DNA of 32,000 nucleotides from positions 1,020,001-1,052,000 of the forward strand of contig NC_018655.1 in NCBI RefSeq assembly GCF_000299365.1, read 5' to 3'. The notes beneath the pieces were generated by a model. That model was not told the origin of the DNA. It was given only the letters and a program-made list of their open reading frames with translations, and did no database searches. The position numbers and the translations under genes are program-made. This DNA is from Candidatus Nitrosopumilus koreensis AR1. GTDB lineage: Archaea; Thermoproteota; Nitrososphaeria; Nitrososphaerales; Nitrosopumilaceae. Shown piece by piece: positions 1,708 through 31,055 of this stretch; the first letter of the stretch is position 1; every line of letters starts with the position of its first letter.

Positions 1708-2859
1708 ATGACTAAATCAATGAGAGCTACGACTTTTCTATTGTTACTATCAATCATGCTAATCTTAGCACCTTCAAGTGTTATGGCACAAACTGAAGTT
1801 GGTGTGGAATCTGAAACAAAGGCAAATGTAGGTGTTAATGTTGGCGCAGATAGCGGAACAAATGCAACAGCAAAATCTGAAACAAAAGCTGAAGCAAAGA
1901 CTGAAGCAAATCCTAAATCTCAAGAAAATGAATCTTCAGAATCTCAACAATCCTCTGAGGCACAGTCAGAAGCATCTGCAAAATCTGAAACAAAAGTCCA
2001 AACCACAGTTGGCAACATTGGAGTTACAGCTATGGGAAAGGGAAAGATGATTGTGGGACTTCCTACAAAGTATCCAATGCCGGCAGTTAGTGCATCTAAT
2101 TCATTTGGATTACAAACTAATCAGCATTTGTACAAACCAGGGGACATGATAACGGTTGAAGGTTCCATATGGGCAGATCTTTTGGCAAATCTTGATGGAG
2201 GTGATACAGTTACAGTAAATCTACTTGACAAACAACGAAATGTTGTTTACGAGACAAAATCACAAATAACTACTGAGGGAGAATATTCTGCAGAGTTCAT
2301 GATGCCTGATGATGCATCAAAAGGAGCATACACAATTACTGCTTCTGTAAATACTGAATCTGATCTTTCAAGCATTGTAGGATTAAACGGAAAGGTAAAC
2401 TTGGGCGCCAGCACCAAAGTTGCTGTAGTTCCACCTCAAGTGTTCAAAATCAATGTTGAAGAGCACGGAGATTTTGATGTCAAAGTAGCAACAAACTCGA
2501 CTATAACAGATGTCCAGTTTAATGGAGATCAAAAGAAAGTATCCGTAACAGTCGAGGGTCAATCAGGTACAAAAGGAGTCAGTCACATATCAATTCCAAA
2601 AGCGATGGTAAGTGGTGATCTCAAAATAATGATTGATGGAAAAGCAGTAGCTAGCGACAAAACCGTGATAACGTCACATACAGAAAATGAGACCGAAGTT
2701 GAGGTAAGTTATGGTCACAGTGTCCATACTATTGACGTGATAGGTACTCAGGCAGTTCCAGAATTTGGCACAATTGCAACTATGATTTTGGTTGTAGCCA
2801 TAGTGTCAATAATTGCTGTCAGTGCAAAATCCAAACTAAGCATAGTTCCAAAACTATAA
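1708..2859 (+). CDS. Secreted surface protein with PEFG-CTERM-type sorting signal
   Basis: Sec signal (MTKSMRATTFLLLLSIMLILAPSSVMA|QTE), then an S/E/T/K/A-rich low-complexity linker and a beta-rich body. The C-terminal 'AVPEFGTIATMILVVAIVSIIAVSAKSK' is a PEFG motif plus TM helix plus basic tail. Confidence 0.75.
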   Translation: MTKSMRATTFLLLLSIMLILAPSSVMAQTEVGVESETKANVGVNVGADSGTNATAKSETKAEAKTEANPKSQENESSESQQSSEAQSEASAKSETKVQTTVGNIGVTAMGKGKMIVGLPTKYPMPAVSASNSFGLQTNQHLYKPGDMITVEGSIWADLLANLDGGDTVTVNLLDKQRNVVYETKSQITTEGEYSAEFMMPDDASKGAYTITASVNTESDLSSIVGLNGKVNLGASTKVAVVPPQVFKINVEEHGDFDVKVATNSTITDVQFNGDQKKVSVTVEGQSGTKGVSHISIPKAMVSGDLKIMIDGKAVASDKTVITSHTENETEVEVSYGHSVHTIDVIGTQAVPEFGTIATMILVVAIVSIIAVSAKSKLSIVPKL

Positions 2860-7816: not shown

Positions 7817-7851
7817 ATTTTCATATTATGCTGTAAGCAAAAGTCTAGTTT

Positions 7852-8109
7852 TCATTTTCTTTTTCTCCGCAAAATAACTCCTGCCACAGTTACAAAGATT
7901 CCAATTATGCCACTGAGCAAAAATGTCTGTTTATACATAAACAAAACATAGTCCAATCCTTCTATCGGTTTCATTATTGGTGGCTCAACAGGTGGAAGCA
8001 AGACATATGATGAATAAATTACTGCCAAAAATCCTTCAGTCATTAATGCAATTCCGATAATTATCAAAAGTATGGATTGCAAAACAACAGTACAAGAAAT
8101 GTTTCGCAT
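7852..8109 (-). CDS. Small membrane protein ending in TM helix + RRKRK
   Basis: Hydrophobic helices at both ends, C-terminus '...IFVTVAGVILRRKRK*'. The stop TGA overlaps a vestigial ATGAAAACTAGA cassette start. Confidence 0.5.
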   Translation of the reverse strand: MRNISCTVVLQSILLIIIGIALMTEGFLAVIYSSYVLLPPVEPPIMKPIEGLDYVLFMYKQTFLLSGIIGIFVTVAGVILRRKRK

Positions 8110-8275
8110 ATAATGATTGATAAAATTTTGATTTTAGTAATACTGAAAGATTCAAAGTGGCAAGTACAGGATTTTTACAGTTTGTTTTATTTTCATGATC
8201 TTAAAATCAGATATTCACAGGTTCTTCCATACTGTTGATTTTACGCAGTTAAATAGAATACAAACCATTAGAATC

Positions 8276-8650
8276 ATGGAAGAAAATTCTCTTCGTTATT
8301 GGATTATTCCAATTATTTGTATAGTTGTAGTGATGGGGGTGTTTGTGGTTACAATGGAATACAAGATAAACACTGTTTTTCCTAATGCCGCAGCAGAATT
8401 AGAAGAGATAAAGAAAATGTCATGTCCCGAAATCATAGCAAAAGATTCTGCAAACAAATATTGGACTCCAAAAAACAGTGCAATTGGAAAAGCAAAAGCT
8501 ATTAGCTGCAGCGTTCCAGAAGAAACCAAGAGTTCTGGTCTAAGTCCATATGTTGAGTTTTGCAATCCGGGAGGATTTGCACCAAATAAAATAATTGAAA
8601 ACAGCACGCATTCGTTTAATCATGATACGTGTACATGGAATTCAAAGTAA
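8276..8650 (+). CDS. N-terminally anchored Cys-containing protein (C-terminal CxPGG...THxF...CxW motif)
   Basis: The internal ATG (MEENSLRYWIIPIICIVVVMGVFVV) gives a signal anchor. The C-terminal 'FCNPGGFAPNKIIENSTHSFNHDTCTW' is paralogous to the C-terminus of 9825..10058. Confidence 0.5.
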   Translation: MEENSLRYWIIPIICIVVVMGVFVVTMEYKINTVFPNAAAELEEIKKMSCPEIIAKDSANKYWTPKNSAIGKAKAISCSVPEETKSSGLSPYVEFCNPGGFAPNKIIENSTHSFNHDTCTWNSK

Positions 8651-8685
8651 AAATATTTTTTACAATACAAACTAGACGCTAGTTT

Positions 8686-8940
8686 TCATTTTTCTACTCT
8701 CCATAATGCGTAAAATGCTCCAACAACAATCAATGATATCCCAGTTATTGGGAGTATTGTAAATTCAGGTGCCACACCAACAGTTTCAATTTTTACCCCA
8801 TTGTCATCAATACTAGTGTAACTAACTGTCCCAGCAAAATACTCAATTGGAATATGAGTTATCTGAACAAATGCTAACCCAGAGAACCAAATCCCAATAA
8901 TTACTGTACCAATAATAATAATCATGTAAGGTGTTTTCAT
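8686..8940 (-). CDS. Small membrane protein with PEF-type C-terminal anchor
   Basis: MKTPYMIIIIGTVIIGIW signal anchor. The C-terminal 'VAPEFTILPITGISLIVVGAFYALWRVEK*' is PEF + TM + basic. The start is preceded by TAGAAAATGAAAAC, like the other cassettes. Confidence 0.55.
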   Translation of the reverse strand: MKTPYMIIIIGTVIIGIWFSGLAFVQITHIPIEYFAGTVSYTSIDDNGVKIETVGVAPEFTILPITGISLIVVGAFYALWRVEK

Positions 8941-8943
8941 TTT

Positions 8944-9462
8944 CTAATCTTGAACAATGACTTCAGTAGATATTGGAGGGGATAGCGCAGTTGGATTACC
9001 TACACTCTCCCAAGCAAAAGCTGTTATTCGATATTTTCCAGGTTCTGTAGGAAGCCAGGAGGTTTCCACAAACTTTTGTGCATAAAATTTTCCTTCACAT
9101 ATCTTATCTCCGCAAACATATGGCTCAGAATAAGTCCATTCGTTGTAGCATATTTTATCCCCACACACAAAAGAACCCGGTTGATCAGTTAATTTTTGCT
9201 GGAATCCTTCAAGCCAACTTAGCAACACAACTTGGTTTTTTTCATTAGTTATTTGATACAATATCACGTATTCAGTATTAGGAAAATTTGATTGGTAATC
9301 AGTTCGGATTGTATATTGCTGATTTGATTTTATGGGCATAGAATCATCCACCCCCTGAATTACAAGATTCTGTAAAGGTACTCTCTCCATTGGTGGTACT
9401 GCAAAAGAATCGGAACCGCCCATAATGCCAATTAAAACCAAAAGGATTACAAGATACTTCAT
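8944..9462 (-). CDS. Secreted protein, 'MKYL' leader-gene family (internal CGDKIC duplication)
   Basis: Signal peptide MKYLVILLVLIGIMGGSDSFA. 'CGDKICYNEW...CGDKICEGKF' is an internal repeat. The conserved promoter/leader block lies upstream. Confidence 0.65.
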   Translation of the reverse strand: MKYLVILLVLIGIMGGSDSFAVPPMERVPLQNLVIQGVDDSMPIKSNQQYTIRTDYQSNFPNTEYVILYQITNEKNQVVLLSWLEGFQQKLTDQPGSFVCGDKICYNEWTYSEPYVCGDKICEGKFYAQKFVETSWLPTEPGKYRITAFAWESVGNPTALSPPISTEVIVQD

Positions 9463-9483
9463 AATGTATGAAATCCTAGTCTG

Positions 9484-9505
9484 TCATTGAAAAGTGCTTC
9501 TGATG
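9484..9505 (-). promoter_or_regulatory. Conserved upstream block, copy C (CATCAGAAGCACTTTTCAATGA on the coding strand)
   Basis: Identical 22-mer at 10747-10768 and 15291-15312. Each copy ends exactly 21 nt upstream of an MKY(L/F) start codon. Confidence 0.6.
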
Positions 9506-9518
9506 ATTTACTTGTTTT

Positions 9519-9683
9519 TTATAGCCCAAAAGATTCTTCAAATGTTTGCCTTGGTTTTGGGTGTGTTTTTTTGGATTGCCTGTTTTTAATCAAGAATAAA
9601 ACAGGAAATCCTGCAATAATTGGTGAGAATCCTAACAACATGAAAAATAATGCTAGGTGTTCTGCTGAAAGCGACATAACCAT
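9519..9683 (-). CDS. Possible small membrane protein (54 aa, below the track cutoff)
   Basis: My translation of the minus strand is MVMSLSAEHLALFFMLLGFSPIIAGFPVLFLIKNRQSKKTHPKPRQTFEESFGL*. That is a hydrophobic helix plus a basic tail, co-oriented with its neighbours. It is antisense to track ORF 9487..9705. Confidence 0.3.
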   Translation of the reverse strand: MVMSLSAEHLALFFMLLGFSPIIAGFPVLFLIKNRQSKKTHPKPRQTFEESFGL

Positions 9684-9824
9684 ACAGAACAAGAGCAGTT
9701 CATAAAATATTCTATTCTAGACACTATTAGATGACTGCAAAATTTGCAAGTAAAAAAACATGACTGCAATCCTTGAAAAATAATTTACAAATTTCTGAAA
9801 TTTTTTATAATATAATTTTCCAGT

Positions 9825-10058
9825 TTAATTTTTCAAGATCCACATACAATTTCCAAGATCAAATTCATGGGTTTGATTTTGTATTAATATTGATGGGACA
9901 ATTTTATCAGGTCCACCAGGAATACAATTTTTTACAAATCTATTATTGTGTGCATCTTCATTTTGTTGTTTGTTTTCCAAATAATCGATTGTAAAATATG
10001 TTGAGCTAACAACTATTAAAATTCCAATTCCAATTATTATCAAAAGTCTAGTTTTCAT
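9825..10058 (-). CDS. MKTR-cassette protein (77 aa), N-terminal anchor, C-terminal CxPGG...THxF...CxW motif
   Basis: The start is ATGAAAACTAGA (MKTRLLIIIGIGILIV), 2 nt after the stop of 10060..10725. The C-terminus is 'NCIPGGPDKIVPSILIQNQTHEFDLGNCMW'. Confidence 0.55.
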   Translation of the reverse strand: MKTRLLIIIGIGILIVVSSTYFTIDYLENKQQNEDAHNNRFVKNCIPGGPDKIVPSILIQNQTHEFDLGNCMWILKN

Positions 10059-10059
10059 T

Positions 10060-10725
10060 TTATTTTCCAAATATCCATGAAATCAAATTGTCAAGATATG
10101 CAAAAATTCCAAAGAATGGGGCATCAGAGCCAACTTTGTCTGTTTTTATTGCTTGGCATATCCCGTCTACCAAAACAGTTCCTTTGCCGCATATATCATT
10201 ATCAACAAACTTATCTGATTCATTTAGATTCATATTTTTCAAAACAGAAAGATTGCGCCCATTAACAGAACAAATATCTCTTTGTACTCCTTTGCCTTCT
10301 TTGCAAATAATCTCCTTGACTACCTGTGAATCCCCTAATCTGATTATCAAATCAGTATCTGCATATCCATGAGTATTTTTTTGAAGATATAGCAAAACCA
10401 CTTGATCCTGCAGGTATGGCTGAGTTGCGTAACTCATTCCATGAGGTTCTCTTGTGAATAATCCCGTAACTGTTACTGTTTGATTATAACTGGATGTTTT
10501 GAAATATTTTTCAGCTTCAATTTCATACATGACAACCCCCAATCTCTCTGTGGAAGTGTTTTCTGTTTTTGTAACCTCTGGCTCAGATAAGATTTCTACT
10601 GATATGACTTTGCCAACTAGAACTATATCTGAATAATCAAATGCGTGTGATGGGTCTAATTGCGGAACAGCGTAAGATATGCTGGTAAAACTGGCAATAA
10701 TTAGTAGAATTACAAGATACTTCAT
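10060..10725 (-). CDS. Secreted protein, 'MKYL' leader-gene family
   Basis: Signal peptide MKYLVILLIIASFTSISYA. The conserved promoter/leader block lies upstream. Confidence 0.65.
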   Translation of the reverse strand: MKYLVILLIIASFTSISYAVPQLDPSHAFDYSDIVLVGKVISVEILSEPEVTKTENTSTERLGVVMYEIEAEKYFKTSSYNQTVTVTGLFTREPHGMSYATQPYLQDQVVLLYLQKNTHGYADTDLIIRLGDSQVVKEIICKEGKGVQRDICSVNGRNLSVLKNMNLNESDKFVDNDICGKGTVLVDGICQAIKTDKVGSDAPFFGIFAYLDNLISWIFGK

Positions 10726-10746
10726 ACTGTATGAAGTCTTATTTTA

Positions 10747-10768
10747 TCATTGAAAAGTGCTTCTGATG
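10747..10768 (-). promoter_or_regulatory. Conserved upstream block, copy B
   Basis: Same 22-mer, ending 21 nt upstream of the ATG at 10725. Confidence 0.6.
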
Positions 10769-10778
10769 TTTTGTATCT

Positions 10779-11330
10779 TTAGTTTTGTTTTCCAAGCAGA
10801 TGTTCCATATCGACAGTTACATCTTTTTCGTTTAACATGGTTATCTGATGCTCAATCTCTGCACGAGTTTCATTGCCATACGAAATCAAAATCCGATCCC
10901 CATCGCTTACGTCATAGTCTGAAACATCATCTATCATATTGTCGTTTACAAAATACTTTAGAGAATATCTTTCATCTGTACAATAACTAGTGCCATTTGT
11001 AATTGCAATGCATTTTTCATCAAGTTTAAAATTCAACGTTTCAAACAGATAGCCAACCGTAACCCTATCGCCATGAATGTGTATGACATCATCATAGGGC
11101 GACTGGAAATTTATCCAATAACTTACTTGTTGGTATTGGGGGTCGTTTAGATCAAACTTTTCGCCATGGATCATGAACAGTATTCCTGCATGTTGGTGTA
11201 CTTTGTTTATTATTGGAGGAGCAAACAGTGACTCTGATTCCTGATTATTCTTGATCATTAACAATAACACACCAATTATAATTACCATAACTACAATTAT
11301 TCCAATAATTATCAGAAATCTAGTTTTCAT
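10779..11330 (-). CDS. MKTR-cassette protein with His-rich motifs (HQH...HIHGD)
   Basis: MKTRFLIIIGIIVVMVIIIGVLLL anchor, with 'VHQHAGILFMIHGEKFDL' and 'VIHIHGDRVTVGYLF'. This could be a metal site, which is inference only. Confidence 0.6.
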   Translation of the reverse strand: MKTRFLIIIGIIVVMVIIIGVLLLMIKNNQESESLFAPPIINKVHQHAGILFMIHGEKFDLNDPQYQQVSYWINFQSPYDDVIHIHGDRVTVGYLFETLNFKLDEKCIAITNGTSYCTDERYSLKYFVNDNMIDDVSDYDVSDGDRILISYGNETRAEIEHQITMLNEKDVTVDMEHLLGKQN

Positions 11331-11336
11331 TTTCTA

Positions 11337-11783
11337 TCAGTTAATCTTGTCCCAATTGAGAATTAGAAAAACAGCATCTTCATACTTGTACAGATTTGTT
11401 GACTTGTCTTCCACCCATTTGTTATAGTGATCAAGTTCAGATGGAGACATTCCAACTCGGATATTATACTCATTAGGAGTTATTCGTACTTCATATTTTT
11501 CATTAGTTGAATCTTGATGGATGACGTATTCATGATCACCATTATTTTCAACAGTAAGTAAAACATCCATCATGTATTTTATTTTTGGAACGTCGTCATA
11601 GTCGGTCTCTTGCATTTGGTAAACAGGATATTTGTCTAGAAATGGAGCATACATTTCTGGATCATCTGAATACATCAGTCCCATTCCTTCATTGTATGAA
11701 GGAACGTATGTGGAAAAATAAAAGACCATAAAGCCCAGAACAATTCCAAGCAATGTAAAGGTAATCAGCGTTCTAGTTTTCAT
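11337..11783 (-). CDS. MKTR-cassette protein (148 aa)
   Basis: The start ATGAAAACTAGA at 11783 (MKTRTLITFTLLGIVLGF) overlaps the ...GAAAACTAG end of the upstream gene. The track's longer 11337..11930 N-terminus is read-through of that overlap. Confidence 0.6.
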   Translation of the reverse strand: MKTRTLITFTLLGIVLGFMVFYFSTYVPSYNEGMGLMYSDDPEMYAPFLDKYPVYQMQETDYDDVPKIKYMMDVLLTVENNGDHEYVIHQDSTNEKYEVRITPNEYNIRVGMSPSELDHYNKWVEDKSTNLYKYEDAVFLILNWDKIN

Positions 11784-12222
11784 TTTCTTTTTTTCCACAT
11801 ATTTTGCATTTGTAATCGCCAAGATCAGAATCAGACTCGTTTGTTTTTCTAGTTTGATCTTTTGAAATAAATTCAAACTCTTCAGATCCACAGAAATTGC
11901 ATTTCCTTGGATGGTATTCCAAGTTTTCAAACTCTTTTTTCTTTTTCAAATATTCTTCTTTGGTGATTTTTTCTTCAATGTATTTTTTTTCTAATATTCT
12001 CAATGCCTCATCGTTTTGTTCTTTTTCATATTCGTTGATTGGATCAATTCGTCTATAATTCAGAAGAGAGTCTTTATCTCTAAAAGCATGTTTTTTTGTA
12101 TACCATAAAATTGCTCCAGCAGATACAATTCCCAAAATCAACCCATATGGAAATGGCATGACTGTTTGAATCAAAAAGAAAACAACAATTGCAGATATTA
12201 TTCCAATGAAGATGGATTTCAT
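11773..12222 (-). CDS. Membrane protein with SHOCT-like helix and C-terminal zinc ribbon
   Basis: The ATG at 12222 (MKSIFIGIISAIVVFF) shares an ATGA overlap with the upstream stop. There are two TM helices. 'ALRILEKKYIEEKITKEEYLKKKKEF' is SHOCT-like. 'CNFC...CKIC' is a zinc ribbon. Confidence 0.55.
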   Translation of the reverse strand: MKSIFIGIISAIVVFFLIQTVMPFPYGLILGIVSAGAILWYTKKHAFRDKDSLLNYRRIDPINEYEKEQNDEALRILEKKYIEEKITKEEYLKKKKEFENLEYHPRKCNFCGSEEFEFISKDQTRKTNESDSDLGDYKCKICGKKENEN

Positions 12223-12953
12223 TTTCGTTTCCACCAATAGATAATTCCAACAATAAAAGACACGCCAAGACTGCTAGCAAGAACTGCCAAAAACACATCC
12301 TCTGAGCTAGTTTTAGATGCCAAAATATTTGGACCATGCATTATGTTCCTAGGCTGACATAGTGCTTGCCCATTTTCACACATTTCATCTAACTGGTTAG
12401 TAGGAAGTGAACGTTTAGACTCTGGTGATGGCATTATCACCCAAGTGTTTTCAGGTAATGGAATTATGTCTGGATTGTATTTCAGGTATATGTCCATAGA
12501 TTCATCAAATCTTTTAATCTCAGATTCATCAACATAATCAAAAGAAATTTTGACTTTCATGTCAGGAGGTAAAGAATTCCTCATGCTAATCGAGGGATGA
12601 ATCTGCAAGGTGTCTTGAATTGCATTGTCTTGATAAAACCCCCAACCACCTATGAAATCTTTAGATGATTGTATTGCATAGTTTTCCCAATCTAGATGAA
12701 TTCCTAGTTTTCTAACGTCATCTTCGTTTAAATCCAAATCATCAACTGCCCTACAAAAAATATTGCCAGGAGTTGCACTACCATCATATCTTGGACTCCA
12801 AAGAGTACGACAGATTTCTAAAAGTTCATCAGGAGTACATGATTCATCAGCAGTTCCCACTTGTTTGTCACAACTAGCATCTGCATTAAGAAAAACAAAT
12901 GGAGCTAATGTGACTCCAATGATGCCAAGCATTATCAAAATTCTAGTTTTCAT
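12219..12953 (-). CDS. MKTR-cassette secreted protein with C-terminal TM + WKRK anchor
   Basis: MKTRILIMLGIIGVTLAPFVFLNADA|SC signal. The C-terminus is 'VFLAVLASSLGVSFIVGIIYWWKRK*'. ATGA overlaps at both ends. Confidence 0.65.
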   Translation of the reverse strand: MKTRILIMLGIIGVTLAPFVFLNADASCDKQVGTADESCTPDELLEICRTLWSPRYDGSATPGNIFCRAVDDLDLNEDDVRKLGIHLDWENYAIQSSKDFIGGWGFYQDNAIQDTLQIHPSISMRNSLPPDMKVKISFDYVDESEIKRFDESMDIYLKYNPDIIPLPENTWVIMPSPESKRSLPTNQLDEMCENGQALCQPRNIMHGPNILASKTSSEDVFLAVLASSLGVSFIVGIIYWWKRK

Positions 12954-13489
12954 TTTCTTCTCCAAAAAAACACCAAACCGACTCCAATTCCAACTCCAGA
13001 TAAAATTCCAAGAATTATTACATACATGTTAAAATCAGGATCAATTCCAAGACCTCCAAGTTCTACTTTATTTGAAGCCAGTTGATATCGTTCATCATCA
13101 GTATATGGGTCATGATCTGTTGAACTTTCATTAATCATGAATTCTTCAAATTGCCCAAAATATTCACCCGTGTTGGGAGCTCTTCCAGAAAAAAAATAAT
13201 ATTCATACACGTTTCTGTTCTGAATTGATTCATCTACCCATTCTTGCAGAGTGTTTTCATTGATTGCCTTTTCAAGTTCAATGCGTTTTTGTTCCATGAA
13301 TTCAGTGCCTTTGAAAGAGTAGTATTGACTCCATTTGTTTACTTCTCCTTGATCATATTTTCCATTTCCAATAGAATCAAGGCATGGAGCATCTGGCCAG
13401 TCTTCGTTTACTATGCAAGATGCAAAAGAATATGGAATTGACAAAAACAGTCCAAAGATTACAAATATTATCAAGAGTCTAGTTTTCAT
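12950..13489 (-). CDS. MKTR-cassette secreted protein with C-terminal TM + WRRK anchor
   Basis: MKTRLLIIFVIFGLFLSIPYSFA|SC signal. The C-terminus is 'DPDFNMYVIILGILSGVGIGVGLVFFWRRK*'. Confidence 0.65.
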   Translation of the reverse strand: MKTRLLIIFVIFGLFLSIPYSFASCIVNEDWPDAPCLDSIGNGKYDQGEVNKWSQYYSFKGTEFMEQKRIELEKAINENTLQEWVDESIQNRNVYEYYFFSGRAPNTGEYFGQFEEFMINESSTDHDPYTDDERYQLASNKVELGGLGIDPDFNMYVIILGILSGVGIGVGLVFFWRRK

Positions 13490-15269
13490 CTTTCCAGTAG
13501 TTCTCCAGCCACAGACCAAGTTCAAGGTCAGGCTCTACAAGTATCGTATCTGTCTTCCAAATTTTATAACAGTCATCAGGTTGTATTTTGTCAATGTATG
13601 TTCCTGTTATCTCAAAGGGCTCATAGACAAACACAGATGAGACATACAGTTCAGTCCCATTGGATGCAATTATCGGAGAGCATACGCGGTGAACACCATC
13701 ATATCCAATGTCATTGTTTGCATAGGATTGCTCTTTTGGAGTAAATTCAACCCCATTTCTGTGCAAAAAGCCATTCCAGACATACGGAAATACAGATTCC
13801 ATACTTGTTGGAATTATTGCATCTGATGAATTAAACTCAATGTCCACATCCCCGCCAGTAATATCAATTATTTTTTGTTCGATTAGTTTTCTATCAGAAT
13901 CATAATATTTTTCAAGAATATCTACAATCAAAAATCCATCACCAATCCCATAACCTACAATTACATCTTTGATGTTAAACGAGCCCCAAGACACATTGGC
14001 ATGATATGCTTCTCGGAGTTTGTCTCGCGCATCAAGTAGAGTCTGTTGATCAGTATCAATGGGTTCTGGTTCAGGAGGAAGAGTTCTCTTAAATTCACAT
14101 TCTTGACTTACGTCACTGAGGAACATATTATCAGGACATGGAAGTACCACTTTGCAGTTTTTTTCAGTTTCATTATAAAATTTCCAAGGAGGGCAAGAAT
14201 TAGGATATTCTGATGGAGGTTCACGAGTTATTCTATTTTCTTGAGTATCTTTTACCCAACCAACACCAGGGTATAGTTTGTATCCTGCATCCAGCATAAG
14301 GTCTCTTTCTGCTTTTGATGTGATGATCAGATTTCGCTCAACTAATTTTAGAAGAGTGTGTTCTTTTACACATGCAGGAGTGCCATTGTTTTTTGTAACC
14401 AGAGTTAATGAGTCTCTGCACTGAATCTCATCAGATGGAACTCCTGACTTGAATTGTTTAAGAGGGGACATCGACCATGGAACAGGATAGACAGTACGGT
14501 CAAGTGACATACCAGAAGGATTTTGCCTTACGACAAATTCTTTGCTAATGTGTACATCATCAAAGTCTATCTCAAGATAGTATTTTCCAGAATCATTGAT
14601 AATTATTGGACGGTCTTCATTGTATCCAATTTTGGTTTGTATCGGAATTGAACTGGAGGTCAAGTCAGGAGAACACGATATTTCTGCACCCCATCCCAAA
14701 ACAAAGTTTCCTTCTTCATCAATTATCTTTGCATCATACGAATTGCAGTCAGCATCAGCAGTCTTTTCTAAAATGAACTGTATGGGCTCCCCAACCATAT
14801 GAGCATATGAAAAATCAATGAATCGGTATTTTTCAGAATCAGTACTGTCTTGTACTAGAACATCAAGTGCGACCTGATCATTCCATGAGCTTTTTTGCAG
14901 TTCATCAGTTTGAAAATGATGCCCAACATATGAAATGCTAAGAAAGATTTTGTTATGCTCAATCTGAGGGTCTACAGTAAGGGTCACTGGAATTCTTTTG
15001 ATCTGTCCTTGCGTGATTTCTATGGAATCAACGTCAACTTGAACAAATTGTCTGGCACTTGATGGGTTTACCTCAATTACAGGGGAAAAATCATTCATCG
15101 TGTAAGGTCCTGAAGTATACAAGAATCGGATGGTCATTTCAGTTGATTTGCCTGCAACTACTTCAGATAATGGCGGATCTATACTTGAATTTCCATTAAA
15201 TGATGATTCTGCAAATGCTTGAGGCATAAACAAAATTGCAACAAATGACAAAATCAAAAAATACTTCAT
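13479..15269 (-). CDS. Large secreted protein (596 aa), 'MKYF' leader gene of the longest cassette string
   Basis: Signal peptide MKYFLILSFVAILFMPQAFA|ESS. Cys-rich central part. The motif 'PACVKEHTLLKLVERN' is shared with 15321..16133. The conserved promoter block lies upstream. Confidence 0.75.
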   Translation of the reverse strand: MKYFLILSFVAILFMPQAFAESSFNGNSSIDPPLSEVVAGKSTEMTIRFLYTSGPYTMNDFSPVIEVNPSSARQFVQVDVDSIEITQGQIKRIPVTLTVDPQIEHNKIFLSISYVGHHFQTDELQKSSWNDQVALDVLVQDSTDSEKYRFIDFSYAHMVGEPIQFILEKTADADCNSYDAKIIDEEGNFVLGWGAEISCSPDLTSSSIPIQTKIGYNEDRPIIINDSGKYYLEIDFDDVHISKEFVVRQNPSGMSLDRTVYPVPWSMSPLKQFKSGVPSDEIQCRDSLTLVTKNNGTPACVKEHTLLKLVERNLIITSKAERDLMLDAGYKLYPGVGWVKDTQENRITREPPSEYPNSCPPWKFYNETEKNCKVVLPCPDNMFLSDVSQECEFKRTLPPEPEPIDTDQQTLLDARDKLREAYHANVSWGSFNIKDVIVGYGIGDGFLIVDILEKYYDSDRKLIEQKIIDITGGDVDIEFNSSDAIIPTSMESVFPYVWNGFLHRNGVEFTPKEQSYANNDIGYDGVHRVCSPIIASNGTELYVSSVFVYEPFEITGTYIDKIQPDDCYKIWKTDTILVEPDLELGLWLENYWKDEN

Positions 15270-15290
15270 ACTGTATGAAAATTCATCACA

Positions 15291-15312
15291 TCATTGAAAA
15301 GTGCTTCTGATG
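15291..15312 (-). promoter_or_regulatory. Conserved upstream block, copy A
   Basis: Same 22-mer, ending 21 nt upstream of the ATG at 15269. Confidence 0.6.
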
Positions 15313-15320
15313 TATGATAT

Positions 15321-16133
15321 CTAGTTATTTTTGTGCACGCCAGTTTCATCACAGGTGTATGTTCCCAAGAAATTCAAAATGTTTTCTTGTGCAACATCTG
15401 TCTGATGGACTCGTTGAGCATAGCAATGAAATGATATGTCTTTTATGTTGTGGTTTTGGTCCAGATTCAGATTCATTCTAACGCTGAAATTATCTCCGTC
15501 TCCTGCAAAATAAGACAGGATGTTATCATCAAAGAGTACATCCGCGTCATCATACACGCTGTAAAATGCTACAACCTCTGGCAGTGTTTTGTAATAATCT
15601 AAAATTGGTTCATCAGAGAAAATAGTTTTTGCAACCCATCCTCTCTGAACTAATTTTAGAACGGACTCTTCAAACACGCAAACAGCTTTGCTGTAATCAG
15701 GTTTTACCACCAACTCACGTTCAGGGGCACATCCATTTAGTGCAGCAGCAGAATATTTTTCAAATATTATGTATTCAGACTTTGATGTTTGAACTATATC
15801 TCCATTGACCTTTCCAACAATCATTATGAAAAACCTTCCAACATCATCAAGAAAGTAATTCTGATGAGTCCCAAAACTTTTTCCAGGAGATACGTCACCT
15901 GAATGCTGTTTTGTATCCCAATAGTTGTCACCTTCTATGTTTTCAAAAATATACTCAATTGATGCAGTTGTGCCGTAATTGTTTGGGTTGTTCACTGAAG
16001 TGTGTATAGCAACAGGGTTTCCAACTTGACCGTAAAATGTCCCGTATCGGTCATCAACATGTTCAGCAAATACAGAAGGCATGAAAAACAGCATAAAGAC
16101 AAAACTGATCCCAATAACTGCTGTACCCACCAT
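15321..16133 (-). CDS. Secreted hypothetical protein (270 aa)
   Basis: Signal peptide MVGTAVIGISFVFMLFFMPSVFA|EH. The motif 'AVCVFEESVLKLVQRGW' is shared with the 596-aa protein. Confidence 0.65.
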   Translation of the reverse strand: MVGTAVIGISFVFMLFFMPSVFAEHVDDRYGTFYGQVGNPVAIHTSVNNPNNYGTTASIEYIFENIEGDNYWDTKQHSGDVSPGKSFGTHQNYFLDDVGRFFIMIVGKVNGDIVQTSKSEYIIFEKYSAAALNGCAPERELVVKPDYSKAVCVFEESVLKLVQRGWVAKTIFSDEPILDYYKTLPEVVAFYSVYDDADVLFDDNILSYFAGDGDNFSVRMNLNLDQNHNIKDISFHCYAQRVHQTDVAQENILNFLGTYTCDETGVHKNN

Positions 16134-18544: not shown

Positions 18545-19345
18545 TTATTCTTTGAGTTTACTTTCTTTGAAGACGTCAGAGCCGTACCAACAATATCTAA
18601 AGTAATCAAGGCACCATTCATGAAACATTTGATCATTCGAATAAAACATTTCAGAAATATCTGATTCGTTATCATTTGTAGGAAACATTATGCATGCCTC
18701 CTTTTCATTTAGGACAAGCACAGTATGTACATCTTTTACCATTTTTCTTTCAACAAATCCTTTTTCAATCAATTTGTCAAACCCTAATTTCTTCAGCAAT
18801 GCCTTTCTGCCTTTTGGAATAACAGTATTTTCTGCATAGATATAGTGGAATTGGACTCCTTTCTTTACCTGTTTGACTAAAGGTTCTATTAAATCAAGAG
18901 GCACCTCTGAAACTACCTCATAGATGTATTTTTCAGAATTTTTGTAAATGCTCTTCCATTGTTCAAGTACTTTAGAAACTCCTTTGATATGCTTGTTCAA
19001 TGCAAGCTGTCCGCAACGCATATTGAATTTGTGGGGAACGTCTCCAAAGCTATGCTTTTCAAAATATTGCAGATTCTGCATCAAAAATACCAAAGAAGGA
19101 ACTTGAGAGCATATGATTTTACCAAATGTTGTCAGTTCAAATGTTCCCCCTGATGTTTTTTTAATCAATCCATTTTTTTCAAGTCGTGAGAAATTCCTAT
19201 GAACTTCCTGTCGTGTTGCCTGAAGTTCTTTTGCACATGTAGTCGGGGTCAAATTCCTACTAAGTAACATGAACAATATGTTTAGTCTCTGAGGACTTGC
19301 AAGCTCCAAAACATAATCAGCCGTTTTGTCAATAAGATCTTCCAT
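18545..19345 (-). CDS. ArsR-type winged-helix regulator with FilR1/DUF1724-like C-terminal domain
   Basis: The N-terminal wHTH is 'SPQRLNILFMLLSRNLTPTTCAKELQATRQEVHRNFSRLEKNGLIKK'. A ~170-aa C-terminal domain matches that archaeal family in size and layout. Confidence 0.7.
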   Translation of the reverse strand: MEDLIDKTADYVLELASPQRLNILFMLLSRNLTPTTCAKELQATRQEVHRNFSRLEKNGLIKKTSGGTFELTTFGKIICSQVPSLVFLMQNLQYFEKHSFGDVPHKFNMRCGQLALNKHIKGVSKVLEQWKSIYKNSEKYIYEVVSEVPLDLIEPLVKQVKKGVQFHYIYAENTVIPKGRKALLKKLGFDKLIEKGFVERKMVKDVHTVLVLNEKEACIMFPTNDNESDISEMFYSNDQMFHEWCLDYFRYCWYGSDVFKESKLKE

Positions 19346-19402: not shown

Positions 19403-19945
19403 TCAGGCAGTATTCCATGGACGTGACTCCAAAAAATCAATCTCTGCAACCATATCATCGACTTTCTTGACTACTGCAAATATTGAACGATATTCATCAT
19501 ACATATCAGATTCTTCCTGAGGAGTAAGAACACTGGATTCGGCATCATCAAAAAACTTGTTTTCCTTGTTCAAGTGGTCATTAAGGAACACAGCATATGT
19601 TTTGAGATAGCGTATGACATTTTCCCTGGCATCCTCGCCATTCTTCCATCTTTTGAGGTGATGTGAAAGTTTTCTTGCAACATTTCTTCCAAGCTCATGT
19701 TCTACAAGGAATTTGTGGATCTCATCTTTGAGAGAACCATGACTTGAAACGCAAGGAAAGTAAGAGTCTTCTTCCCTAGAATGATGAATTGTGTCAATAA
19801 ATTCAGAGATGACAATTGTAATTTTTGTCAAATCAGAAAATGGAATTTCTTCTCCTTTGTTAAGTTCACCCACACACTTGAAAATAATTTTCTCCAATCT
19901 TCGTACATGTACATGGTCTTCTCTCAGAGTATTCGTTGCACTCAT
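19403..19945 (-). CDS. Hemerythrin-like (HHE cation-binding) domain protein
   Basis: Repeated His/Glu motifs: 'REDHVHVRRLEK', 'IHHSREEDSYFP', 'VEHELGRN', 'LNDHLNKENKFF'. Confidence 0.7.
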   Translation of the reverse strand: MSATNTLREDHVHVRRLEKIIFKCVGELNKGEEIPFSDLTKITIVISEFIDTIHHSREEDSYFPCVSSHGSLKDEIHKFLVEHELGRNVARKLSHHLKRWKNGEDARENVIRYLKTYAVFLNDHLNKENKFFDDAESSVLTPQEESDMYDEYRSIFAVVKKVDDMVAEIDFLESRPWNTA

Positions 19946-20238: not shown

Positions 20239-21573
20239 TCATGTAACATTTACAGTACCTTTCATCCATGGATGTAATGTACAGATATAATCAATGATGC
20301 CAGGATTTTCAAATGTATGACTCCAAGTTTTGCCCGCTTGAATAAATTCTGAATCAAATGATTTTTCATTATCAGTCACAGTATGTACAACAGAATCATC
20401 GTTTGTCCAAGTTACTGTTGTTCCAGATTTTACCTCGATGGAAATTGGATCATAAGATTCCACAACATCTGGATTCCAAGAGCCTTTTACAATTGAAACT
20501 TTATCAGTTTGGACTTTTTCAGTATGGCTGACCTGAACCTGACCTAAATTCTCATATGAGATTATCTTTGGTTGTTCTAATGATTTTATCAATTCTTCTT
20601 GCCATTCTATCATGGAATAGCTTCCTTTGTTGTTACTTGGAGTTTGAATATCAGTTAATGAGGATGCATCCTCAAGCACTTCAATAATTGCCATAGAGCC
20701 ACGTTCTTCCTGAATACCGTGAACATGGAACAAGTATCTACCAGGAGTGTCCCAAGTAGCTTCAATAATTGCAGTATCACCATTTCCAATCAAATGTGTC
20801 TGTGCAAAATATGGTTCATTCCATAAAATTCCTGATGGGTAGACCTGCATTATTGTACTGTGTATATGAAAAGGGGATTGCAACACGCCACCAATACCAA
20901 CTACATAAAATCGTGTCAGATCTCCAGCTACAACTTTGATTGGGTGTTCCATGTATTGACCAGCATACCCGTTAATTGGATAGTATTTTGTAAAATACGC
21001 TAGAGTGTCAGTAGGATCAAACTCACTTAAAGTGAAAAAGTACTCTCTTGCAGGCTCCATTGGTCGTATTGCAGGATCAATTATCATTGTACCAAACATC
21101 CCCATTCGAACATGTTCAGTTGTGGGAAATGCATGACAATGATACATGAAAAGACCTGCCTCTTCTGCGATAAAGTGATACGTGTATTCTTCTCCAGGCA
21201 TTATCATTGGAAACACACCATCATTTACAGAGTCATGAGTTCCATGGAAATGAATAGTATGTGCATATGGAGTATCATTAACAAACTTGACAGTAACATC
21301 ATCCCCTTCGCTAAATCTAAGAGTAGGAGCTGGAACTGTTCCATTATATGTCCAAACTGTTGCACGTTCACCACCAGCTACTTCAATTTCTGCATCTTGG
21401 GCAATTAGTGTATAATGTAATGTCTGAGGATTTGGATTCTCAAATTTTGGATAGATATTAGACGAGTCTGCAATAGTAGTTTGTAATTCAGGAGATTGAA
21501 TCAGTAATGCAGATGCAATACCGACCCCTATAATCACCCCTACAATAACATACAGAGTACTTGGCTTGATCAT
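20239..21573 (-). CDS. Two-domain multicopper oxidase (NirK-superfamily) with fused C-terminal plastocyanin-like cupredoxin domain, paralog 1
   Basis: N-terminal anchor. Copper motifs 'HTIHFHGTH', 'MYHCHAFPTTEHVRMGMFG', 'FHIHS' and 'LFHVHGIQEERGSM'. The C-terminal type-1 Cu site is 'VVHTVT...YICTLHPWMKG'. Confidence 0.85.
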   Translation of the reverse strand: MIKPSTLYVIVGVIIGVGIASALLIQSPELQTTIADSSNIYPKFENPNPQTLHYTLIAQDAEIEVAGGERATVWTYNGTVPAPTLRFSEGDDVTVKFVNDTPYAHTIHFHGTHDSVNDGVFPMIMPGEEYTYHFIAEEAGLFMYHCHAFPTTEHVRMGMFGTMIIDPAIRPMEPAREYFFTLSEFDPTDTLAYFTKYYPINGYAGQYMEHPIKVVAGDLTRFYVVGIGGVLQSPFHIHSTIMQVYPSGILWNEPYFAQTHLIGNGDTAIIEATWDTPGRYLFHVHGIQEERGSMAIIEVLEDASSLTDIQTPSNNKGSYSMIEWQEELIKSLEQPKIISYENLGQVQVSHTEKVQTDKVSIVKGSWNPDVVESYDPISIEVKSGTTVTWTNDDSVVHTVTDNEKSFDSEFIQAGKTWSHTFENPGIIDYICTLHPWMKGTVNVT

Positions 21574-28074: not shown

Positions 28075-28562
28075 TATGGTTTTACTCCCAATGATGAATA
28101 AATTGATTCAATTTTTCTCGTTTTTGCAAACCAGCGTCCTATAGTTTCAGCTTTTTTAAAACATTCAGTTTTTTCATCATGTACATCATCTATGGTGTCG
28201 TTAATTTGATAATTCAAGACAGTTATTGACGCGTTATTATCTAATGAAATTTGATTTTGTTCTAACAAAAACCAAAATGAATTTTTTGTTACAGGAACCA
28301 AATCTTTTGCAATTTTATGAAAATGTATCAAAATTTCTGAATTCATATTTAACCAATTTGAGAAATTTTGACGTGAACCATATTCAATTTTTTCCCTAGT
28401 TTCTTTATGCAAAACTAACGGAAGTATTAGGAATAAGAGTGGAAAAGGCATGGGTCTGGTGGAATATTTTGTATATTTTTTGACACATCTGCGCAAAATT
28501 TCTGCACAGAACGCAGGATTAAAGAGATTGAAAATCTCTCGTGATTCATTCGTTTGATTCAT
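28074..28562 (-). CDS. ABC-3C middle component
   Basis: 162 aa. 'FNPAFCAEILRRCV...MPFPLLFLILPLVLHKETR' resembles the ABC-three-component middle-component families. TAATG overlap with the ATPase start and a 17-nt overlap with the effector end. Confidence 0.6.
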   Translation of the reverse strand: MNQTNESREIFNLFNPAFCAEILRRCVKKYTKYSTRPMPFPLLFLILPLVLHKETREKIEYGSRQNFSNWLNMNSEILIHFHKIAKDLVPVTKNSFWFLLEQNQISLDNNASITVLNYQINDTIDDVHDEKTECFKKAETIGRWFAKTRKIESIYSSLGVKP

Positions 28563-29181: not shown

Positions 29182-29326
29182 ACTATAATCAAGACTTGAA
29201 ATAATTGCTTTTTTATTTCATTAATTTTTGGGTATGTGTCTATGATGTAGATGTTATCTAATAGACTAAATTTTTGATAATCATCTAGCTTGTTAAATTT
29301 ATCATAATGCTTTTCATGAGAAACAT

Positions 29327-29761: not shown

Positions 29762-29821
29762 GTACTTTAACTTGATTGCATCTCAATCTTAGTGTTTTAT
29801 GTAGAGACTTTAACCAATTCG

Positions 29822-29844
29822 AAAATTCTCCTTAAGAGAATTTT
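29822..29844. promoter_or_regulatory. Inverted repeat AAAATTCTC-cttaa-GAGAATTTT between the integrase 3' end and the ABC-3C operon start
   Basis: 9-bp perfect arms with a 5-nt spacer. It lies 61 bp upstream of the effector start and 12 bp downstream of the integrase stop. Confidence 0.4.
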
Positions 29845-29855
29845 AAATACAATTT

Positions 29856-30998: not shown

Positions 30999-31033
30999 AC
31001 ATTCTATAGAACTTGGGGCTATTTTAGTAAGTA

Positions 31034-31055
31034 AAATACAGGAGAGCCGACTAGT
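31034..31055 (+). repeat. Right copy of 22-bp direct repeat (candidate attR core)
   Basis: AAATACAGGAGAGCCGACTAGT, identical to 4541-4562. It lies 36 bp upstream of the integrase ATG. Confidence 0.8.

Follow-up and report, generated by a model that had tools for sequence, protein, structure and literature searches.

Genes NKOR_06175-06220 of the marine ammonia-oxidising archaeon Candidatus Nitrosopumilus koreensis AR1, every one of which is annotated as 'hypothetical', lie in arrays whose members are joined head to tail by copies of a portable junction module, and this module probably doubles as a homologous-recombination site at which surface genes are joined, duplicated, deleted and moved. 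The site is placed at the module because every array gene begins with the same nucleotides. The proposal draws on the anatomy of the module, its wide distribution, its fixed synonymous codons, breaks in homology within it, a duplication bounded by it and the remnants of it at array ends. No earlier description of module-joined surface-gene arrays was found in the literature.

The window analysed was a stretch of 32,000 nucleotides, in which a motif search detected seven exact copies of the 11-mer ATGAAAACTAG, all on the minus strand (7845-7855, 8679-8689, 10048-10058, 11320-11330, 11773-11783, 12943-12953 and 13479-13489), where 0.04 copies were expected by chance and the maximum in any of 100 shuffles was one. 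None was found in the remaining 26 kb of the window or in 9.5 kb beyond it. The positions agree with those given in an earlier, sequence-only reading of this DNA, as do the near copy ATGAAAACA at 8940, where gene C2 begins MKTPYM, and the related junction ATGAAATCC at 12222, where gene A4 begins MKSIF. The core described in that reading as an 11-nt linker is real, but the likeness between copies reaches from approximately -6 to approximately +33, and the 11-mer is the centre of a module of ∼40 nt, (T/A)AGAAA-ATG-AAR-ACT-AGR-CTT-TTG-ATA-ATT-ATT-GGA. The module supplies a start codon, encodes the first residues of a Sec-type signal or anchor (MKTRLLIIIG) and holds stops in both other reading frames, TGA at +1 and TAG at +8; a third stop, an in-frame TAG at -6, is frequent.

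Two ways in which upstream stops are fused to the motif had been proposed and both were present: ATGA overlaps after RRKRK* (D1), WRVEK* (C2), WRRK* (A2) and WKRK* (A3), and EN* endings read from ...GAAAACTAG in A1 (KDEN*) and A4 (KENEN*). Both arise from the TGA in frame +1 and the TAG in frame +2 of the module itself. Five of the copies form gene boundaries as claimed, but those at 8689 and 7855 start remnants of five and nine codons respectively, each terminating one of two arrays. Among the loci listed, the upstream open reading frame stopped at TGA+1 in 36/149 junctions, at TAG+8 in 31/149 and at TAG-6 in 13/149, and was missing at 20/149, giving 80 of the 129 junctions with an upstream frame that end at one of the three. 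Start regions of module genes were less structured than other starts (mean MFE -4.8 vs -6.8 kcal/mol; unpaired probability 0.65 vs 0.53), and GAAA at -4 preceded 60% of module genes vs 7% of other genes. The fit of the upstream stops and the unusually unstructured start region suggest that translation may be coupled across the module.

Operon A lies entirely on the minus strand and is headed by a second type of module (copy 1, 15250..15325), composed of CAGAAGCACTTTTCAATGA (15309-15291), a 14-nt variable stretch and TTCATACAGT-ATGAAGTAT, which would represent a promoter-like element with a near-leaderless A1 start. A1 (NKOR_06220, 596 aa, 13479..15269) begins with the signal peptide MKYFLIL, contains a WING-49 domain at aa 269-314 (NF058652, 67.6 bits; cut-off 22) and ends KDEN*, its stop being the TAG inside the next module; at this junction, J1 (13473..13495, core 13489-13479), A1 runs 11 nt into A2 to reach its stop at TAG+8. 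A2 (NKOR_06215, 179 aa, 12950..13489) has an MKTRLLIIF signal and a Cys-containing domain (SCIVNEDWPDAPC...), and its C-terminal TM helix leads into WRRK*; the Cys-containing domain also occurs elsewhere with another signal peptide in front of it and in fusions with other domains. The A2 stop forms an ATGA overlap at J2 (12937..12959, core 12953-12943) with A3 (NKOR_06210, 244 aa, 12219..12953), which carries an MKTRILIM signal and, at its C-terminus, a TM helix with the tail WWKRK*. The ATGA overlap between A3 and A4 lies in a diverged junction, GAAA-ATGAAATCC (12210..12228), the orthologue of which in a related MAG is the canonical TAGAAA-ATGAAAACTAT. A4 (NKOR_06205, 149 aa, 11773..12222) has two N-terminal TM helices and a C-terminal, zinc-ribbon-like CxxC...CxxC tail; its KENEN* ending is formed by the TAG of J3 (11767..11789, core 11783-11773; 11-nt overlap), the module that follows. 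A5 (NKOR_06200, 148 aa, 11337..11783; MKTRTLITF anchor) is followed by J4 (11314..11336, core 11330-11320), the core of which is preceded by TGA-TAG-AAA and which thus has an in-frame TAG at -6. The last gene, A6 (NKOR_06195, 183 aa, 10779..11330; MKTRFLIII anchor), has a conserved domain in which certain His and Cys positions are invariant across the family alignment, and has orthologues with other N-termini; the domain is possibly beta-grasp/DUF4430-like, its predicted structure (pLDDT 67.8) giving no more than weak fold matches.

Operons B and C, also on the minus strand, have the same arrangement. Operon-head copy 2 (10688..10778, 19-mer 10765-10747) precedes B1 (NKOR_06190, 221 aa, 10060..10725; MKYLVILL signal peptide), and J5 (10042..10064, core 10058-10048), with TAA at -4 and then A-ATG, leads into B2 (NKOR_06185, 77 aa, 9825..10058), which joins a MKTRLLIIIGIGI anchor to a small Cys domain. 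Copy 3 (9425..9515, 19-mer 9502-9484) precedes C1 (NKOR_06180, 172 aa, 8944..9462; MKYLVILL signal peptide), and the variant-core junction TAGAAA-ATGAAAACA (8930..8946), with an in-frame TAG at -6, precedes C2 (NKOR_06175, 84 aa, 8686..8940), which contains two TM helices and has WRVEK* as its C-terminus. The operon-head module, previously unnoticed, thus heads each of the three operons, and its exact 19-mers number three where 0.12 were expected. A conserved promoter-like element, GAAGNACTTTTCAATGA, lies at approximately -41 to -23 from the near-leaderless MKYLVIL start and precedes MKY genes at 12 other loci with the same spacing, which is consistent with promoter function.

The array ends at a remnant, J6 (8672..8695, minus strand; ATGAAAACTAGCGTCTAG, MKTSV*), which supplies the C2 stop and faces the convergent gene E (151 aa, 8195..8650, plus strand), whose protein has a TM anchor and, at its C-terminus, a Cys domain. 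Beyond it, D1 (85 aa, 7852..8109, minus strand), which ends RRKRK*, holds a mutated module copy at its N-terminus (8049-8081, 82% identical to J5), and a second remnant, J7 (7826..7861, minus strand; ATGAAAACTAGACTTTTGCTTACAGCATAA, MKTRLLLTA*), abuts the stop of a convergent GT2-GtrA gene. A truncated module is the usual end of an array: among the loci listed, 33 of 40 truncated modules abutted a gene upstream, and 20 of these 33 were located at an array end. The array-end remnants retain +11 to +33 nt of the module.

All-vs-all BLASTP matches between the array proteins were confined to the N- and C-termini, in agreement with the claim that they are alike only at their ends. The bodies are mostly unrelated, as had been stated, with the exceptions that A1 and U2 share the WING-49 domain and that the Cys domains of B2 and gene E are homologous (E = 1e-7). 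No array gene matched a Pfam family above threshold. From their predicted signals and TM helices, the proteins would be secreted or anchored in the membrane.

The module is not peculiar to this locus. A metagenome scan located it at at least 120 loci, and 106 module-bearing proteins among the loci listed fell into 41 body clusters. The sequence-only reading had allowed that an 11-mer common elsewhere might be a simple favoured signal-peptide codon string; the 11-mer is indeed common at many unrelated gene starts throughout the Nitrosopumilaceae, but the fixed synonymous codons exclude this meaning. Counted among the loci listed in MKT-start frames that had not been selected by the module search pattern, Thr was ACT in 78/85 independent starts vs 35% in bodies (p = 1e-27) and Arg was AGR in 48/48 vs 65% in bodies (p = 1e-9); CTT-TTG prevails at the two Leu codons. 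The order of an MKY gene followed by MKT genes was also found in Nitrosopumilus salarius BD31, a MAG and a 2-Mb genome.

Comparison between genomes, using loci that were retrieved by module content and therefore form a biased sample, placed changes in gene content at the modules. Conserved linkers flanked variable bodies as described earlier, and gene content was not invariant in relatives: in N. salarius BD31 (L002), the nearest species, the U2/A1 frame was retained, as was the EN*/ATGAAAACTAG junction, and every downstream gene was different. Junction pairs alike on one side only numbered 54, vs 11 alike on both sides, among the loci listed; one pair (L010/L034) was 100% identical upstream and through +23 and unrelated beyond. 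Within the same set, 118/260 internal homology-block ends lay ≤40 nt from a module vs 14.9 expected (∼8-fold), a figure to be read knowing that breaks are expected at gene boundaries and that a shared module makes any intergenic break look intra-module. Upstream blocks there had a median end at +16 and downstream blocks a median start at -3. The block-end rate per site among the listed loci was 0.456 at modules vs 0.077 at other gene starts, an imperfect control that includes spurious open reading frames.

Individual cassettes have the same edges. The A4 cassette is 89-91% identical in a related MAG (L129/L130), the match running from -4 relative to the A4 ATG to +12 in the module that follows, and the C1 block (9510-8933) matches MAG L129 at 93% identity and stops 8 nt into the next gene; both occur in AR1 and in the related MAG, bounded by modules but next to different genes. 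In the related MAG a 1127-bp two-gene segment is duplicated between two arrays at 97% identity, its edges falling within module copies, at positions -4 and +10, and another locus (L125) carries the gene families of the window in changed order. The proposal of cassette duplication or shuffling was largely supported by these breaks, shared cassettes and module-bounded duplication; whole-gene tandem duplication was rejected as the source of this array because the bodies are unrelated.

It is possible, although somewhat unlikely, that the module is primarily an expression or regulatory element at which rearrangement is merely tolerated, acting as a termination-reinitiation signal for cistrons that have no Shine-Dalgarno or as a protein or small-RNA site co-regulating the secretome. 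Synonymous sites are fixed across lineages, beyond single genomes, AGAAA at -5 to -1 distinguishes module genes from others, and the start region folds more weakly than shuffled versions of itself (p = 2e-4); the three stops in or beside the module terminate 62% of upstream frames among the loci listed, and first cistrons have a different, promoter-linked start module. Variant concordance within contigs was barely above chance, a weak test of homogenisation that is confounded by GC. However, ACT has the same A/T content as ACA, so that low structure alone does not account for ACT, and TAG+8 is retained in nearly all junctions listed yet serves the upstream gene in only those 31/149. An Rfam search with the module gave no match and no common hairpin or inverted repeat was found at the junctions, while the array-end remnants and the module-bounded intragenomic duplication are left without explanation. 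An expression role is also compatible with a recombining module rather than exclusive of it.

That the module is an ordinary, inherited, lineage-typical Sec signal in fast-diverging paralogues, within compact operons and islands of unspecific turnover, appears improbable. MKTR and the hydrophobic run after it make an unremarkable n/h-region, and 4-nt overlaps are frequent in prokaryotic operons; the 11-nt overlap through an internal TAG is not generic in operons. The module is widespread and has decayed through ordinary point mutation in a more distant genome (L126), D1 contains a module copy in simple mutational decay, and strain-specific islands rich in envelope genes have already been reported for AR1 and AR2 (PMC4010524). 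Against this, codon fixation far exceeds the amino-acid need, bodies are unrelated or domain mosaics rather than diverged paralogues, one and the same body is found with different N-termini, the breakpoint rate per site is 6-fold above that of other gene starts among the loci listed, the duplication edges coincide exactly with modules, and arrays show n+1 modules with terminal remnants. Such n+1 sites for n genes, with a partial site at the end, a highly conserved site and promoterless cassettes behind a promoter-bearing first gene, recall an integron, in which the module would be an attachment site and a dedicated site-specific recombinase would cut it to add and remove cassettes downstream of the MKY promoter gene. 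A tyrosine integrase gene is present in the window (29856-31094), but lies 14.6 kb off and probably belongs to a Lamassu-type defence island, since it adjoins a Lamassu-type operon and a split TauE gene; no recombinase family was found in the 8-10 kb next to the arrays of L126, L129 and L130. The junctions differ from integrons in the absence of attC-like inverted repeats, homology ends are scattered from -12 to +36 with no single position, and viral contigs gave no module matches, which makes an integron-like system very unlikely.

For a recombining junction module, the following is proposed. The module would end the upstream gene in any reading frame and restart translation at once in an A-rich, weakly structured context, an immediate restart that would suit an organism whose downstream cistrons have no evident Shine-Dalgarno, and it would encode the first part of a Sec signal peptide or anchor, namely its charged n-region and the opening residues of its hydrophobic core. 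Each transcription unit would be headed by the different module, a promoter-like element with MKYLVIL. Recombination would use the junction module as a substrate, beyond being merely tolerated there, and the outcome would be hypervariable arrays whose secreted or membrane-anchored proteins are unrelated and often domain mosaics. Surface diversification may be the benefit of such array shuffling.

The 11-mer ATGAAAACTAG occurs exactly seven times in the window, always on the minus strand (7845-7855, 8679-8689, 10048-10058, 11320-11330, 11773-11783, 12943-12953 and 13479-13489), as the sequence-only reading had stated; shuffled windows contained a mean of 0.04 copies and a maximum of 1. The genes concerned all lie on this strand, each with its own start. 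On the minus-strand reading and the ORF list, A1 (15269-13479, 596 aa, starting MKYFLIL) is followed without a spacer by A2 (13489-12950), and A3 (12953-12219), A4 (12222-11773, starting MKSIF), A5 (11783-11337) and A6 (11330-10779) continue in the same manner. B1 (10725-10060) and C1 (9462-8944) both start MKYLVILL; B2 (10058-9825) comes next after B1, C2 (8940-8686) starts MKTPYM, and D1 (8109-7852) is the last gene of the region. Every stop/start overlap previously described between these genes is present. All copies had been placed at gene boundaries; five of them start genes, but the copies at 8689 and 7855 open frames of only 5 and 9 codons (MKTSV and MKTRLLLTA, each followed by a stop), both at array ends and facing a convergent gene.

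Strain AR1 encodes proteins identical to those of the arrays as NKOR_06175 to NKOR_06220, each annotated 'hypothetical protein'. A sister assembly was 100% identical across 11.1 kb, and leftward extension into it added zero modules. The flanking genes encode glycosyltransferases (PMT_2, GT2-GtrA), a Cache-HAMP-cyclase protein and multicopper oxidases. The last are two paralogous minus-strand genes (20239-21573 and 23043-24404), each with a C-terminal plastocyanin-like domain, with a hemerythrin gene (19403-19945) and a wHTH regulator (18545-19345) nearby. MG2 (alpha-2-macroglobulin-type) domain proteins were also found near arrays, in the window (1708-2859, plus strand) and in a related MAG (11298-13439 of locus L130). 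Between operons B and C an ORF of 54-57 codons (9519-9692, minus strand) encodes a small hydrophobic protein and carries no module; it is a gene in the public annotation (54 aa).

Aligned copies of the element, hereafter the module, run from about -6 to about +33 relative to its ATG and read (T/A)AGAAA ATG AAA ACT AGA CTT TTG ATA ATT ATT GGA, or in compact form (T/A)AGAAA-ATGAARACTAGR. Upstream genes arriving in either of the frames not shared with its ATG are terminated by the module, and so are those in the third frame where TAG stands at -6; it supplies the next ATG and encodes MKTR with the beginning of a hydrophobic segment. Two 'fusion patterns' had been distinguished at the junctions, and both are seen, but they are a property of the motif itself: since the +1 frame of ATGAAAACTAG contains TGA and its +2 frame TAG, upstream genes in either frame terminate there. 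Upstream proteins often end ...ENEN or ...W-R-K/I-R-K before the stop, so the junction also encodes their last residues. Compared with other starts, and with shuffles of itself, the module start region showed less structure. An Rfam search across the window gave no match, and programmed frameshifting at the A-rich junction was set aside, there being no canonical slippery heptamer.

As the module is conserved there, the MKTR ATG is taken as the true start. Mechanical ORF calls extend 9825-10070, 11337-11930, 12219-12965 and 12950-13525 to upstream TTG or ATG codons, and the database entries NKOR_06185 (81 aa) and NKOR_06200 (153 aa) likewise start too far upstream. At the N-terminus of D1 a mutated module copy (8049-8081, 82% identical to the B2 copy) lies a few codons inside the ORF; D1 uses a new upstream ATG and is an example of module decay.

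A second repeat of 91 nt, the head module, precedes each MKY gene of the window, and its exact 19-mer CAGAAGCACTTTTCAATGA occurs three times against 0.12 expected. As a head repeat and MKY start are each time followed by MKT-module genes, the region comprises three putative transcription units; in the window the promoter-like module stands before MKY genes only, and the downstream genes overlap tightly. The head module was found in a dozen other loci with fixed spacing (GAAGNACTTTTCAATGA, 13-14 nt, TTCATACAGT-ATG-AAG-TAT; in compact form GAAGNACTTTTCAATGA-N13-14-TTCATACAGTATGAARTAT, with TTTTCAATGA as the conserved box within it). From its sequence, this geometry would fit a BRE/TATA promoter of the archaeal type whose transcript is leaderless or nearly so. 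The same order of MKY then MKT genes recurs in N. salarius BD31, in a MAG and in a 2-Mb genome (39% GC), in the last of which the module has visibly decayed through point mutations. The MKY-headed first cistron would presumably be translated from a promoter-proximal start and the downstream cistrons by termination-reinitiation, and the products may be exported or anchored.

Truncated modules abut the upstream gene in 33 of the 40 evaluable cases, 20 of these 33 at an array end, and for this reason arrays tend to consist of n genes and n+1 modules, a layout found twice in the window and also in BD31. In the BD31 locus two terminal remnants (L002, 15664-15720 and 18224-18280; MKTRSYS...) share the module and a downstream 20-mer, AAAAGATTCGAGCCTTRACC; the pair brackets ~2.5 kb encoding a membrane protein, a cytidine deaminase and another MKTR gene, where ARAGORN detected no tRNA. 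A tRNA- or att-like origin of remnants was rejected, no tRNAs being present in the window or in L001-L003.

The bodies of the array proteins had been called unrelated. All-against-all BLASTP similarity was indeed confined to the N- and C-termini, except for small domains shared by A1 and U2 and by B2 and E. No array gene exceeded the Pfam threshold, and PADLOC gave no match to the array proteins. The sole NCBIfam match of the arrays was WING-49 (NF058652) at aa 269-314 of A1 (67.6 bits against a cut-off of 22); by BLASTP U2 shares this region, and membership of WING-49 holds for A1, not for the whole array. A6 matched DUF4430, a beta-grasp 'putative metal-binding' family, below the Pfam threshold (E = 0.036); its structural model had a pLDDT of 67.8 and a weak best PDB match, 3u7z (E = 0.13, TM 0.32-0.59). 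Read from the sequence, the N-termini consist of MKTR and 15-20 hydrophobic residues, some with ...SFA/SC or ...ADA/SC (the slash marking the putative cleavage point); they are candidate Sec-type signal peptides or signal anchors, a class with a positively charged n-region, a hydrophobic h-region and, optionally, an AxA-like cleavage site. A2, A3, C2 and D1 end in a TM helix and a basic tail and are therefore predicted to be type I membrane proteins. No NCBIfam sorting-domain model for an archaeosortase-type signal (PGF-CTERM or PEFG-CTERM) matched at E <= 1. Gene E (8195-8650, plus strand) ends in the small Cys domain (C-PGG...TH-F...C-W) of B2 (9825-10058, minus strand; BLASTP E = 1e-7); it is a cassette of this domain, inverted, between two arrays.

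The module is not specific to this locus: ATGAARACTAGRNTNYTGATAAT was present in at least 120 loci of public metagenome contigs, and viral contigs gave 0 matches. These loci and two genome loci yielded 149 pattern matches, only 20 of which lacked an upstream ORF; the upstream stop was TGA at +1 in 36, TAG at +8 in 31 and an in-frame TAG at -6 in 13. The 106 module proteins of at least 70 aa fell into 41 body clusters by single linkage, the largest being a chain joined via small shared Cys-rich domains and not one family. A profile of 67 module N-termini searched against a protein collection gave 8 weak matches among 221 candidates.

Codon usage was assessed in MKT-start ORFs of the retrieved loci that did not match the search pattern. 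The Thr codon was ACT in 78 of 85, against 35% in gene bodies (p = 1e-27), and the Arg codon was AGA or AGG in all 48 of 48, against 65% (p = 1e-9); the two Leu codons of the module were mostly CTT TTG, and GAAA occupied -4 to -1 in 60% of module genes compared with 7% of other genes. When tested for concerted evolution within genomes, the AAA/AAG and AGA/AGG variants showed a weak within-contig excess (p = 0.04 and 0.001), which is confounded by lineage GC. The tetranucleotide CTAG is not under-represented (observed/expected 1.09), so its rarity explains nothing. A sub-module, ATG AAA ACT AGA TAC AAA AT (MKTRYKI), recurs, and a 223-aa gene of the MAG GCA_025698945.1 (L129 9326, L130 7326) starts ATGAAACTAGAATATAGAATAATA, which is the same sub-module minus one A. 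This gene now begins MKLEYRII: the DNA is conserved and the reading frame changed. The module is thus more than a favoured peptide.

Exchange at the module was assessed from homology between junctions. Among all pairs, 28 were alike only upstream, 26 only downstream and only 11 on both sides. One pair (L010 and L034) is 100% identical for >90 nt upstream and through ATGAAAACTAGA.TTTTGATAAT, and unrelated beyond; in further close pairs homology breaks at +11/+12 or at -3, inside the module. Of 260 internal ends of homology blocks, 118 lay within 40 nt of a module start (14.9 expected) and 30 near other gene starts (13.4 expected), giving per-site break rates of 0.456 and 0.077, a ~6-fold difference; the control set includes spurious ORFs, the loci were chosen for carrying the module, and gene boundaries are natural breakpoints in any case. 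The median end of upstream blocks was +16 and the median beginning of downstream blocks -3.

The A4 cassette recurs in two loci of GCA_025698945.1 at 89-91% identity, the match beginning at -4 relative to its ATG and reaching +12 in the module that follows. A C1 block is 93% identical to the same MAG and stops 8 nt inside the following gene; the neighbouring genes are different in each case. Two arrays of this MAG share a 1127-bp segment of two cassettes at 97% identity, with edges at -4 and +10 of module copies, and one of them ends at the segment edge in the remnant ATGAAAACTAAAACAACCTGA. Families of the window (A1 domain, A4-like, A6, A2-like, WING-49) occur in a different order in locus L125, A6 orthologues have differing N-termini, and the A2 domain is found elsewhere following another signal peptide and in fusion with other domains (at least 2 matches among 8000 candidates, with the concatenated cassette bodies as query). 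The BD31 A1 is variable in its N-terminal part and conserved in its C-terminal part (67% identity). The ~40 nt shared through the module may be the substrate of homologous recombination, which would give the exchanges seen. The earlier suggestion of cassette shuffling was largely right, though the element is not particular to one locus, and neither the remnants nor the head module nor the codon fixation had been noticed.

An explanation by signal peptides of the ordinary kind, combined with operon overlaps, is contradicted by the codon fixation, by the unrelated, mosaic bodies and by the 6-fold excess of breakpoints. A purely regulatory or translational element accounts for the conservation and is compatible with exchange at the module; it leaves both the remnants and the module-bounded duplication unaccounted for.

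An integron-like system driven by a recombinase is unlikely. No recombinase was recorded near the arrays of the more distant genome (L126) or of the two MAG loci (L129 and L130), the seven junctions have no common inverted repeat, the module is not palindromic, and the homology ends are scattered across ~40 nt. The only integrase of the window, a tyrosine integrase (29856-31094, minus strand), is 14.6 kb off, next to a defence operon of the Lamassu type and an interrupted TauE gene. This Lamassu/ABC-3C-type region (26143-31589, minus strand, GC 29-31%) encodes an LmuB-like ATPase with DUF3732 (26143-28074), an MC3/LmuC protein (28074-28562) and a CTD7 protein (28546-29181), followed by the integrase. 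The TauE fragment after the integrase matches only the last half of the family model, and the region looks like an integrated island that splits the TauE gene.

The closest described logic is that of the Staphylococcus aureus lpl cluster. In that cluster (Tsuru and Kobayashi, 2008; PMC2568036), lipoprotein-like genes stand in tandem within a genomic island, homologous recombination takes place at a short stretch of highly conserved nucleotides present in every ORF, and the evolutionary unit reaches from the 3' portion of an ORF across the junction into the 5' portion of its neighbour. The array genes likewise stand in tandem in a genomic island and are of a putatively exported type, each with a conserved stretch at which breakpoints and duplication edges fall; the lpl genes, however, are true paralogues with the conserved region in mid-ORF, whereas in the arrays the start/stop junction itself is conserved, between unrelated bodies. 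The arrays differ from the lpl cluster also in their archaeal host, the want of a lipobox and the stop codons in the other two frames. Full-length paralogy of array genes was not found, BLASTP similarity being at the termini only, with 41 body clusters across loci.

The Mycoplasma vsp/vsa and Borrelia vlp/vsp genes have a nucleotide-conserved 5' end, including signal-peptide sequence, before highly variable surface-protein bodies, and this end (in Borrelia, the upstream homology sequence) is used in DNA rearrangement. In such loci only a single gene is expressed at any given time, and the switch is made either by site-specific inversion or through gene conversion into an expression site. The array genes, in contrast to vsp/vsa, keep their own starts and one orientation, are apparently co-transcribed and vary between genomes; no invertase and no inverted alternative genes or promoters of the vsp/vsa type were found in the window. 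Integrons have a promoter-proximal head followed by promoterless unrelated cassettes, a layout that the arrays would fit, and resemble them in the recurring site bounding each cassette and in strain-variable content, but the array site lies inside coding sequence, encodes a signal peptide and the neighbour's stop, and has breakpoints spread along it. No integron integrase was found next to the arrays, and no attC-type inverted repeat common to the seven junctions. In translational coupling an overlapping stop and start (ATGA) allows termination-reinitiation; the arrays share the 4-nt overlaps and stops a few nt from the next start, but here the overlap comes from one fixed sequence for upstream genes in any of the three frames, includes an unusual 11-nt overlap and is tied to a fixed N-terminal peptide.

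In polymorphic toxin systems and the VARTIG module of Thermococcales a large secreted protein is followed by variable small genes, and recombination is credited with the hypervariability (PMC3482391; PMC8416519). The VARTIG authors reported no counterpart outside Thermococcales, from searches seeded on Ig-domain proteins (CARDB, E-set clan). VARTIG and the arrays are both archaeal, without an assigned function, and share a layout of head plus variable cassettes. Variation in the toxin and VARTIG systems is concentrated in the large protein's C-terminal domain and accompanied by orphan tips and immunity genes, whereas the recurring element of the arrays is an N-terminal start module on every gene; toxin, immunity and Ig domains gave no Pfam, NCBIfam or PADLOC match in the array proteins. 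As a type of region, the arrays resemble the archaeal 'dark matter islands', with arCOG08821 'membrane protein, expanded in Thaumarchaeota' (Makarova et al., 2014; PMC4158269), and the strain-specific envelope islands of AR1 and AR2 (Park et al., 2014; PMC4010524): all hold narrowly distributed, small, fast-evolving genes with TM segments or signals in strain-specific thaumarchaeal islands. Those papers list genes and islands without a conserved junction, codon fixation or recombination at the junction. A full-text literature search, of incomplete journal coverage, found no published description of the junction or the head module.

The module-bearing arrays are real and widespread and have apparently gone undescribed; they represent a variant of an evolutionary strategy already known, here in archaea that are ecologically dominant. 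Few cells in the ocean are as abundant as the ammonia-oxidising archaea of the genus Nitrosopumilus, and a sizeable share of their strain-specific genes encodes small 'hypothetical' envelope proteins. The most far-reaching reading, which we consider rather improbable, is of plug-and-play secretome cassettes in Nitrosopumilus and its relatives, with the module as a universal adaptor actively used for the capture, duplication and exchange of ORFs and domains within and between genomes, and synonymous sites kept for that use. Such an adaptor would stop any upstream frame, restart translation and supply the export signal, driven by homologous recombination or an unrecognised recombinase, and would be a functional analogue of integrons within coding sequence, diversifying the surface of highly abundant archaea.

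The fixed ACT, AGR, CTT and TTG codons represent a nucleotide-level constraint worth experiment in its own right. If the interpretation is true, the module would provide a simple sequence tag for finding such genes and correcting their start sites, and would account for the expression and export of unrelated genes packed into tight arrays, in an organism that lacks obvious ribosome-binding sites. The arrays would then be an archaeal counterpart of the conserved-5'-end recombination strategies of bacterial pathogens, and the mechanism by which surface proteins turn over rapidly would become concrete and testable; this turnover bears on interactions with viruses and grazers and on niche adaptation.
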